Translations under genes and position numbers: made by a program
Shown here: in pieces, positions 60,580 through 63,529 of the stretch
Numbering within the stretch: the stretch's first letter is position 1
How the letters are laid out: each line of letters starts with the position of its first letter
The notes under the pieces: generated by a model
The model's database searches: none
What the model saw: only the letters and a program-made list of their open reading frames with translations
What the model was told of the DNA's origin: nothing
DNA from: an uncultured Candidatus Saccharibacteria bacterium
GTDB taxonomy: Bacteria > Patescibacteriota > Minisyncoccia > Phycocordibacterales > CAYQYW01
DNA length: 64,000 nt
Assembly (NCBI GenBank): GCA_964421995.1
Contig: CAYQYW010000005.1
Span: 2,203 to 66,202, forward strand
Reading direction: 5' to 3'

Positions 60580-61494
60580 ATGGAAGAAGATATAAATATC
60601 TCGTCGGAACCTGCACAAAAGGAAAGCATGTTCCCGCCATTTATTCTTGTTGCATTAGTTATTGTCGGAATTATTGTAGTGATTTTTATTCTTCTGAGAT
60701 TTGATAATGGTCAATCTTCATCGTTTAATATTCCAACTGATACTAATCACGTCATTCTATATGACAACAATACACTCTATGCGTTTGAGCCTGTCTCTGG
60801 TGAGTTAAAAGAACTTGGAACTTTTTTACTTGAGGGAGGAGAAATAAATGAAGCGGCATTATCCTCTGATTTAGTAAGTATTTTGCTTTCATCAAGCGGT
60901 AGCATTTTACAGTTCACTTCGTTTACAAGTGGTGAAGTTATTGGAACAAGTGCAGGCAAAATAAAAGATATAGCAATTTCAAATAAGTTAGTCTTGTTTT
61001 CTTCAGGAGAATTAAATGATAGAAATGAACGAAGTGTGTACAAGATACAAGACAAAGAAATAGAAATATTTGATCTTGGAAGTACTCCATTTTTCCTTAA
61101 TGATGGAGCGTATGCTGCACTTGGTACCTCTGATGGGTTTAGATTATTTGATTTTGAATTTGGGGACTACCTTGATACCGAAACACCAACCATTCCGGTT
61201 GCCAGTACGATACAGCCATCTAGGTCTGGGAATAAAATTGCACTAGTGAGCACTAATAACTCAGTTCATATATACAGTGTGCTTTCTCTGCGACCACTTA
61301 GCTTACTCGAGGACTTTTTTTTAGTGATCCCAGGTGTGTATGATGCTGCGGTGTCAGATGATGGAAGGATTGCATTATTAAAACGTTTAAATGAAAGAAC
61401 ATATATATCAGTTTGGACTTCAAACAATAAAGAATTATTAAGCAAAGAATTGCCCGTGAGCAAGAATGCAAAAATGTTATTATGGAGTAAATAA
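60580..61494 (+). CDS. Membrane-anchored beta-propeller-like (TolB/WD40-like) protein
   Basis: N-terminal TM helix, then repeated beta-strand-rich about 40-aa segments (LVLFSS..., AALGTSDGFRLFDF..., IALVSTNNSVHIYSV..., IALLKRLNERTYISVW...). Confidence 0.35.
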   Translation: MEEDINISSEPAQKESMFPPFILVALVIVGIIVVIFILLRFDNGQSSSFNIPTDTNHVILYDNNTLYAFEPVSGELKELGTFLLEGGEINEAALSSDLVSILLSSSGSILQFTSFTSGEVIGTSAGKIKDIAISNKLVLFSSGELNDRNERSVYKIQDKEIEIFDLGSTPFFLNDGAYAALGTSDGFRLFDFEFGDYLDTETPTIPVASTIQPSRSGNKIALVSTNNSVHIYSVLSLRPLSLLEDFFLVIPGVYDAAVSDDGRIALLKRLNERTYISVWTSNNKELLSKELPVSKNAKMLLWSK

Positions 61495-61495
61495 T

Positions 61496-63529
61496 ATGAA
61501 TATACGTAAAGGAAAATTTATAATCGCATTGTTTCTACTTCTATCGATGTTTGTTGCGTCCGATGCTGATGCAAGACGATCTATATTTGGTAATGGCGGT
61601 GAACCGATTTTTGCGGGAACTAGTATCACCAATCCAGAAACGACTTGCCCAGCTGGATATGATTTTTTTGAAACAGTTGATAACCCGTATTCGTTGGAGA
61701 GTTCTGGTACGGGTCCACTGTATGTTGGTTCTGGAGTTTTAATGATCTGTGTGAAAAGTGATCTGTGTGATCAATATGGTAATGGGTGGCCTCACATTGG
61801 TATAGACACCGAAGTAGATGCTCGAGTTGCGCCGTGCGGTATTGTTACTAGTACAACCGCGACACTTGTTGCAAATTCTTCGGCGATTAATGTTGGAAAT
61901 GCTTCAACACTTACCTGGGGTAGTTCTGGAGCAACAAGCTGCGCTGGTTCTGGTTTTCTAACAGGAGGAGCGTTGTCTGGAAGCGTTAGTGTTTTGCCAA
62001 ACATTACCACTACGTATTCAGTGACTTGTACTGGCTCATCGGGGTCTGCGATTGCAACTGCTCAGGTTTCGGTTTCAGCATCTCTAGATTTAGTTGCAGG
62101 AAGACCAACTTTGAAAACAGGTAATTTAAATGGAGCGGGTAAACAAGTATCGTTTGAATCAGTTATTTCTAATATGGGGGACGCACGTGCCCTAGGTGAA
62201 ATACTAAATGTATTTGAGTTAGATATTAATAATGACGGAAGCTTTGATGTGCTCCTTACTTCGGATTCTCTTTCTGATCTTGATGGCAAAAATAGCAAAA
62301 AAATATCATCAACAAATTGGACGACCGTTCTTGGCACACATTCCATTCGAGCTGTTGTGGATGTTGGTTCTGCAACAAGAAGAACTGAAGGTGAGTTGAG
62401 GACATATGCATGTCCGGCCACAACTGCGCTTTGTGGTCCATTCTGCATTCCTGAGCTTAATGATGGAGGAGGACCTAGCATAGTATGTAGTGTTCCAACG
62501 ATGATGTTGGTAGCAGACGATAGTTCAATTACTGTTGGTGAATCAACAGATATTTCTATACAGGATCCAAAGAATGAACAGTTGTGTACTGCGGTGCAAA
62601 GGGAATTAAATCCTCTTCTGTCTGGTCAGGGATCAGTAACCGTTTCTCCAATGGTTACTACAACGTATCGATTAGACTGCGAAGATGGATATGGTGGAGT
62701 ATATTCTCCGACAGTTAAGGTTGTTGTTTCTGGTCAAACTACCAGTACCTGGGAGTATTTTGATACCGACTATACAGATTTTTGGTGCCCTATAACTGAT
62801 ATAAACAACGCATATCAAAGTCTGTCGGTATGTCCAGATGATCCAGAAGGAAAGATTTGCTCTGAGCCGAGCCTATGCAAAATTAATAGCATTAATAATA
62901 GTTGTGTAATTAAGACAATACTGTATGTCTGCGACGCGGATGGTAGTACTGGTGGTTCAGGGAGTACCGGAACTACTAATCCCGGAAGTATTGTTGAAGT
63001 AAATGAATTAAATAATACAAGTTCAACATATGTATTTACAGTGGGTGAACCTCAATGTTCTGATGGTATTGATAATGATGGTGACGGAGATATTGATTAT
63101 CCAAATGATGTTTCGTGTTCAGGGGCGAGCGATTTAACTGAAGGTCTACCAACACAGTGTTCTGATGGTATTGATAACGATAGTGATGGAGATATAGATC
63201 TTGCTGATGCTGGATGTAGTTCTGCTGGAGATAATAGTGAAGCTCAATCAGCTATCTTAAATCCAACGGTAGATATTGCAACCGTACCACCTGTTGCACT
63301 GGTTAGAAAAAGAGCTCAAATAACTGTTGTTTGGACAGCACGTGATGTTAGTTCATGTGTGGTAACTGGCCCATCGGTTGCCGAATCATACAGCACGACA
63401 AGAGTTAGTGGTCAGCAACGAGTGGCGATTAATGAAAAAAGCACGTACACCATTACCTGCAATTCAGACACGGGAGTAATTAGTGACAGTGTTACTGTTG
63501 GTATTGCCCCATCATTTAAAGAGGAATAA
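61496..63529 (+). CDS. Large secreted Cys-rich surface protein with Ig-like beta repeats and two TSP3-like calcium-binding repeats
   Basis: Signal peptide (MNIRKGKFIIALFLLLSMFVASDADA). Gly/Ser/Thr-rich beta repeats with TLTWGSSGATSCAGSG and TTTYSVTCTG. Two copies of QCSDGIDNDGDGDID...D...C near the C-terminus. Start set at MNIRK (61496). Confidence 0.45.
   Translation: MNIRKGKFIIALFLLLSMFVASDADARRSIFGNGGEPIFAGTSITNPETTCPAGYDFFETVDNPYSLESSGTGPLYVGSGVLMICVKSDLCDQYGNGWPHIGIDTEVDARVAPCGIVTSTTATLVANSSAINVGNASTLTWGSSGATSCAGSGFLTGGALSGSVSVLPNITTTYSVTCTGSSGSAIATAQVSVSASLDLVAGRPTLKTGNLNGAGKQVSFESVISNMGDARALGEILNVFELDINNDGSFDVLLTSDSLSDLDGKNSKKISSTNWTTVLGTHSIRAVVDVGSATRRTEGELRTYACPATTALCGPFCIPELNDGGGPSIVCSVPTMMLVADDSSITVGESTDISIQDPKNEQLCTAVQRELNPLLSGQGSVTVSPMVTTTYRLDCEDGYGGVYSPTVKVVVSGQTTSTWEYFDTDYTDFWCPITDINNAYQSLSVCPDDPEGKICSEPSLCKINSINNSCVIKTILYVCDADGSTGGSGSTGTTNPGSIVEVNELNNTSSTYVFTVGEPQCSDGIDNDGDGDIDYPNDVSCSGASDLTEGLPTQCSDGIDNDSDGDIDLADAGCSSAGDNSEAQSAILNPTVDIATVPPVALVRKRAQITVVWTARDVSSCVVTGPSVAESYSTTRVSGQQRVAINEKSTYTITCNSDTGVISDSVTVGIAPSFKEE

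Follow-up and report, generated by a model that had tools for sequence, protein, structure and literature searches.

A membrane-anchored propeller gene and a secreted cysteine-rich repeat protein gene as a candidate two-subunit surface device of Patescibacteria

Introduction

Patescibacteria are abundant and mostly uncultured, and where they have been cultivated they live attached to other microbes. To our knowledge, little has been established about how they attach to hosts or build their surfaces beyond type IV pili. The window analysed here, a stretch of 64,000 nucleotides from an uncultured, ultra-small bacterium of the Patescibacteria type, carries two adjacent genes at positions 60580–63529, A and B, which raise the question of whether a membrane protein and a secreted, cysteine-rich neighbour work as a single surface structure, and of what kind. 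Both were confirmed as open reading frames (ORFs) on the + strand, at the coordinates given by a first-pass annotation.

Results

The features of gene A are as follows.

60580..61494, + strand: gene A, 304 aa, Cys-free single-pass membrane protein with a beta-propeller ectodomain (ORF)
60628..60699, + strand: transmembrane helix of A, approximately aa 17–40, a signal anchor (Kyte-Doolittle maximum 3.69)
60721..61491, + strand: six-bladed beta-propeller ectodomain of A, approximately aa 48–304

The helix is the only strongly hydrophobic segment of protein A. An AlphaFold2 (AF2) model, made from a 9-sequence alignment, had a mean pLDDT of 85.4 and a pTM of 0.78, and showed a helix at aa 20–42 and then 24 strands, consistent with six blades of four strands each. 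Foldseek matched this model to WD40 and TolB propellers in the PDB (E ~1e-9), with TolB the nearest; model and matches together bear out the initial description of A as an N-terminally anchored, propeller-like protein. The Pfam PD40, WD40 and Ldl_recept_b models did not match A, nor did any TolB or PD40 model in Pfam or NCBIfam. The family is tiny, with 8 representatives among 1.84 billion proteins, and a locus scan of species-representative genomes for A relatives returned 66 stretches from A2 patterns, none of which was confirmed.

The C-terminal propeller of TolB and the YWTD propellers of LDLR and LRP, both of them protein-docking platforms, resemble the predicted propeller of A in being six-bladed and extracytoplasmic, at sequence identities to A of 4–18%. 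TolB has an N-terminal alpha/beta domain and a signal peptide, whereas in A the membrane helix leads straight into the propeller. No tol or pal genes were found near A, which is flanked by uvrC and gene B, with ddl nearby.

The 5′ end of gene B was read as follows.

61484..61487, + strand: GGAG Shine-Dalgarno-like element within the 3′ end of gene A, 8 nt before ATG 61496 (direct sequence reading)
61496..63529, + strand: gene B, 677-aa precursor from the preferred start (ORF; start position kept in homologous pairs)
61496..61573, + strand: Sec-type signal peptide, aa 1–26 (MNIRKGKFIIALFLLLSMFVASDADA), with a basic n-region, a 14-residue hydrophobic core and A-x-A

The longest ORF of B spans 61466–63529 (687 aa), and its first ATG, at 61466, overlaps A by 29 nt. 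The first-pass annotation had accordingly let the start of B overlap the stop of A. We prefer ATG 61496, one base past the TAA of A, because GGAG lies ahead of it, because translation from it gives the canonical signal peptide MNIRKGK-FIIALFLLLSMFVA-SDADA, and because it corresponds to the start position used by all homologous pairs, in which the spacing lies between -4 and +6 nt. The junction is therefore probably a 1-nt gap and not an overlap; translational coupling between A and B is still tight with this start. The signal peptide was assigned from sequence features, and a like layout is seen in the P0002 and L001 orthologs.

Downstream of the signal peptide, B was divided into the following modules.

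61574..61840, + strand: N-terminal 4-Cys domain, aa 27–115 (alignments A3 and A9)
61841..62083, + strand: Ig-like domain 1, aa 116–196, one Cys pair, of the type TLTWSS..ATSC...TTTYSVTC (AF2 pLDDT ~95)
62084..62368, + strand: CARDB domain, N-terminal part, aa 197–291 (Pfam CARDB)
62369..62986, + strand: hypervariable insert in the last CARDB loop, aa 292–497
62987..63052, + strand: CARDB C-terminal strand(s), aa 498–519, SIVEVNELNNTSSTYVFTV (in-silico splicing test)
63053..63154, + strand: acidic disulfide-loop repeat 1, aa 520–553 (QCSDGIDNDGDGDIDYPNDVSC...) (NCBIfam NF033662, repeat profile, teneurin 7PLP)
63155..63262, + strand: acidic disulfide-loop repeat 2, aa 554–589 (QCSDGIDNDSDGDIDLADAGC...) (same three sources)
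63263..63526, + strand: family-defining C-terminal Ig-like domain, aa 590–677, one Cys pair (AF2: seven strands, pLDDT 90–95)
63509..63526, + strand: terminal tail PSFKEE (low pLDDT, outside the last strand in AF2)

The protein is composed of 12% Ser, 10% Thr and 10% Gly, and 24 of its 25 Cys lie in the mature protein, with an even count in each module. The original picture of an exported, Cys-rich protein with Ig-like repeats and two acidic loops thus held up. The N-terminal 4-Cys domain, for which there is no Pfam model and where AF2 confidence was low, was confined to B proteins whose partner is a window-type (Z) propeller. Ig-like domain 1 has no Pfam or NCBIfam model. The three Ig-like modules (Ig1, Ig2 and the C-terminal domain) are mutually related: relative to shuffled sequences, two of the pairings reach z 8.8 and 6.4, and the third, Ig2 with the C-terminal domain, is weak (z 2.6).

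When the contiguous sequence of B was compared with CARDB (PF07705), scores of 13.3–18.4 bits were obtained over profile positions 17–87, against a gathering threshold of 22.7. In-silico removal of aa 292–497 raised the score to 27.8 bits and extended the match to positions 17–100 of 101, and the equivalent excision in P0002 gave 38.2 bits. As judged from these scores, a CARDB domain appears to be present but interrupted by the insert. The insert contains a 4-Cys linker, Ig-like domain 2 (332–413), a 6-Cys module (414–484) and a Gly/Ser linker. It is 6–15% identical to the inserts of orthologs, with insert lengths of 114–258 aa, whereas the modules flanking it are 43–73% identical to those of the closest ortholog. 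Its Cys module is shared with P0004, P0005, P0012, P0017 and L005_B2. AF2 modelled the insert at pLDDT 55–87; its confidence was low in the N-domain, in the CARDB region and in the acidic repeats (pLDDT 38–59 for the last, in models without ions). A Foldseek search of the PDB with the B model returned generic multi-Ig matches alone, with TM-scores of ~0.1.

The acidic repeats carry the motif C-S-D-G-I-D-N-D-x-D-G-D-I-D...C in two copies, at aa 531–551 and 565–584 in the 687-aa numbering, and score z 11.9 against each other. The underlying pattern C.DG.[DN]ND was absent from all other six-frame ORFs of the window. NF033662, 'acidic double-disulfide repeat-containing protein', was the only curated model to recognise the repeats, in two stretches of protein B (37.6 bits, E 1.3e-9; cut-off 41). 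The shortfall is probably due to there being only two copies, with repeat 1 divergent; relatives scored 54.9 (P0002), 55.8 and 42.9 (L001 paralogs), 48.5 (L005_B2) and 44.9 bits (P0017). Taken by itself, the name of the model implies four Cys per unit, whereas each 34-residue unit of B has two. The two Cys are 18–19 residues apart in all but one of 486 distinct repeats from related loci, and among 50 aligned repeats C3, D5, G6, D8, N9, D10, D16, D20 and C23 are invariant, with D12 and G13 nearly so.

A search of solved structures with the repeat profile gave as its best match the C-rich domain of human teneurin-4 (residues 834–871, 7PLP), at a marginal E of 0.0023 (20.8 bits). Repeat positions D5, D8, N9, D10, D12, D16 and D20 aligned in hmmsearch with teneurin-4 D840, D843, N844, D845, D847, D851 and D854, which belong to calcium ligands listed in PMC9058538, and C3/C23 aligned with the disulfide C838–C857. 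Two of the three calcium sites of this domain were called TSP3-like by its authors (PMC9058538). Both the teneurin domain and the B repeat are acidic and disulfide-closed, and in teneurin the domain forms an extracellular calcium cage that stabilises a larger adhesion protein. The teneurin domain is present as a single copy and has six Cys (paired 1–3, 2–5 and 4–6) with a C-terminal LA-like or conotoxin-like half, whereas the B-type repeat occurs in tandem, keeps the 1–3 pair only and lacks equivalents of C852, C858, C863, C869 and D856. From this alignment we infer that the acidic loops of B may bind calcium.

The first-pass annotation had called these units TSP3-like calcium-binding repeats. 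As a description of function the term agrees with the teneurin sites, and the DxDxDGxxDxxD-type acidic loop is common to B and thrombospondin type 3 repeats (TSP_3, PF02412; TSP3_bac, PF18884; 1UX6). Membership of that family was not upheld: TSP_3 and TSP3_bac gave no match at E <= 1 with whole B or the isolated repeats, or at E <= 10 with an idealised four-repeat consensus; no thrombospondin chain appeared among the PDB matches of the repeat profile at E <= 10; and the thrombospondin Cys framework is unlike the single pair per unit in B. In a regex scan the shorter DxDxDGxxD fitted both repeats, while the full DxDxDGxxDxxD, which had been assigned to both copies, fitted repeat 2 only, repeat 1 having Asn at position 12. 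The first-pass annotation had also called TSP3-like repeats unusual in bacteria outside adhesins. The acidic repeat is not rare: it was found at 297 loci of species-representative genomes, in Patescibacteria, DPANN and other archaea, Myxococcota and others. Copy number ranges from 2 in the window protein to 16 in other proteins.

The domain search that the first-pass annotation had proposed also addressed a dockerin or cellulosome identity, its proposed ground for refutation. Dockerin models did not match B even at permissive thresholds, and the neighbouring genes are uvrC and ddl; this identity was rejected. EF-hand_5, EF-hand_1 and EF-hand_6 scored 8–17 bits (cut-offs ~25), and EF-hand matches in the PDB were non-significant and confined to the loop, the repeat flanks being rich in Pro, Gly and Cys. 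PF11617, a MopE-type putative metal-binding motif, matched the repeats weakly and below threshold (E 0.057 and 0.0087); its name, like that of NF033662, is descriptive and without tested function.

The C-terminal domain was kept in all B relatives, including B-like proteins without an A partner, and its penultimate Glu is invariant. A tail of the form P-x-aromatic-x-E-x ends every relative, fragments included. No Pfam or NCBIfam model covers the domain, no model of a known sorting signal (type IX CTD, sortase or others) matched B, and no hydrophobic segment follows PSFKEE. A word-indexed homolog search with a profile of the domain returned short fragment-like proteins alone, in which the tail motif was confirmed.

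In 12 independent assemblies, the upstream side was readable for 18 B-like genes that are encoded separately, and 14 of them directly follow a same-strand gene whose product is beta-rich. The spacing ranges from an overlap of 4–8 nt to a gap of +9 nt, the largest being in L007 (1020 to 1030). Partners whose N-terminus lies on the contig have an N-terminal membrane helix, except that of L007, where no canonical start was found upstream of an in-frame hydrophobic stretch; the L002 and L011 partners are cut at the contig edge. Of the four B-like genes without such a partner, L013 B′ and L053 come after genes of a different, 476–484-aa family, L020 has no partner and L085 has its own N-terminal anchor. 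The pairs occur in two housekeeping contexts, uvrC...ddl and L25–lytic transglycosylase...L31–prfA–rpsB–tsf. L001 and L005 carry tandem duplicates of the pair, and in L010 a fusion is followed by a second pair. B proteins range from ~350 to 1017 aa.

In the natural fusions P0011 and P0026, a transmembrane helix and a partner-type domain are joined to a B-like protein, which suggests an N-in orientation for the helix of A. P0011 lies in the syntenic slot where L003 and L008 have partner and B as two genes. At the fusion junction, '...EAYA|YTYPNPP', the cleavage region of the former signal peptide of B is kept and its hydrophobic core lost. The fused N-domain is homologous to the separate partners of L007, L011 and L012 (phmmer E between 1e-13 and 1e-22; the set searched was small), and window-type partners aligned with those of the L003/L005/L010 type at an hhalign probability of 95% (E 2.7e-8; 71% in another alignment). 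The A family gave no significant hhalign match to the N-domains of the fusion proteins, and L005_A1 is unrelated to all other partner types. Partner sequences diverge to the point that homology across all types can be demonstrated only in part. An 'S-x-R-P' motif common to A and the fusion N-domains was rejected as a coincidence, since L007, L011 and L012 lack it at the corresponding alignment position. The type of the B N-domain tracks that of the partner (4/4 for the window type, 5/5 for the fusion type), a co-variation that could simply reflect shared lineage.

Discussion

The early suggestion that the two genes form a unit is borne out by conserved pairing, duplication as a unit and natural fusion. 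New here are the pairing itself, the tandem duplications, the fusions and the C-terminal domain common to B relatives; no description of the A–B pair or of NF033662 was found in the literature. Given that the pair recurs across genomes, is duplicated together and is sometimes fused, we give even chances to the reading that A and B are two subunits of one cell-surface device, conserved in Patescibacteria, in which B is a calcium-stiffened adhesin or fibril with a variable head. The folds, modules, gene coupling, pair conservation and fusions are observed; binding of A to B, calcium binding and adhesion are proposed, the last on the evidence of architecture and the lifestyle of cultivated relatives only.

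In such a device, A would insert by its N-terminal helix and show its six-bladed, TolB-like propeller outside the cell. After export by Sec and loss of its signal peptide, B would fold as a chain of beta-sandwich modules stabilised by disulfides. Non-covalent docking to the propeller, most likely through the N-terminal domain of B, would keep B on the cell. The two Cys-closed acidic loops would act as calcium sites that stiffen B in its distal part. The ~206-residue insert in the CARDB loop, read as a variable head because of its low identity to orthologs relative to the scaffold, would be the likely determinant of specificity toward a host cell or other surface. The conserved C-terminal domain and tail would serve a family-wide function independent of A.

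Several other arrangements were weighed against this one. B might be an S-layer lattice subunit and A its membrane stalk or anchor, functionally analogous to the co-transcribed SlaA and SlaB of Sulfolobales, where the gene for the outer subunit likewise adjoins that for the membrane anchor, and to other S-layer proteins whose anchors are co-expressed accessory proteins. The systems are alike in logic only; SlaB has a C-terminal anchor, and neither A nor B has a sequence or Pfam or NCBIfam model match to SlaA/SlaB or to the type IX CTD. A secreted, multi-Ig-like, Ser/Thr/Gly-rich protein with predicted calcium sites would suit a lattice, as calcium commonly mediates S-layer assembly; the pair sits among housekeeping genes, and the Foldseek matches of B include 7PTP, 5FTX and 8CKA among the generic multi-Ig proteins. 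Predictions exist of Patescibacterial S-layer proteins that contain Ig-like domains, and archaeal anchoring through co-expressed accessory proteins has been described (bioRxiv 10.1101/2024.05.28.596244). However, the fold matches are generic at the TM-scores given above, and tandem paralogous pairs whose inserts are non-homologous, and very variable B lengths, suit variable adhesins better, which leaves a lattice rather unlikely. The C-terminal domain invites another thought, that its ~85 residues and flexible P-x-aromatic-x-E-x-COOH tail might form an unrecognised surface-sorting or attachment signal, wide in Patescibacteria, with the anchored propellers as cognate membrane platforms. Its function would be comparable to that of the type IX secretion CTD or of sortase signals, and the former is also a conserved Ig-like C-terminal domain of ~85 residues on mosaic proteins with signal peptides, again a likeness of logic only. 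Type IX secretion requires an outer membrane and the Por machinery. We hold the sorting signal to be unlikely; if real, it would mark mosaic surface proteins for retention, polymerisation or coupling to envelope components.

The pair could also be co-transcribed neighbours with separate roles, such as a TolB-like propeller for envelope or cell-wall maintenance and a released exoprotein binding calcium or nutrients. The cell-wall-related neighbours (ddl, and the SLT_2 lytic transglycosylase of the second context), TolB as top structural match of A and the partnerless B-like genes all fit this, yet the pair stays together in two unrelated genomic contexts, has been duplicated and fused as a unit, and A lacks both the TolB N-terminal domain and a tol–pal context, so that we regard separate roles as improbable. 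Most doubtful of all is head-to-tail polymerisation of B, its C-terminal tail acting as a donor strand for the next subunit on a membrane base or assembly platform formed by A. The tail is indeed conserved in every relative and lies outside the last strand of a confidently modelled domain, as expected of a short linear motif or donor strand, and the domain also occurs in partnerless proteins. Against this, no acceptor groove was identified, the cassette has no protease or usher-like gene, partner–B fusions would cap the polymer, and the idea is purely architectural.

Under the two-subunit reading, the cassette becomes a concrete candidate surface structure: a membrane propeller platform and a scaffold with a swappable head, predicted calcium sites and a C-terminal signature. 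Natural fusions predict a physical association of A and B. A related domain solved at 1.5 Å is the model for the predicted calcium sites, and the acidic repeat gains a structural template and a likely biochemical role. Should B be merely another variable adhesin, the value would lie mainly in annotation, and three modules now without a model (the Ig-like type, the 6-Cys module and the C-terminal domain) could become family models.

Promoter and terminator scans did no better than on shuffled sequence. PHROGs and PADLOC gave no phage or defence assignment, the sole match being a weak Ig-like one to a virion protein (E 0.0011). Three 489-aa minus-strand ORFs of the window, considered as a possible repeat, are unrelated proteins.

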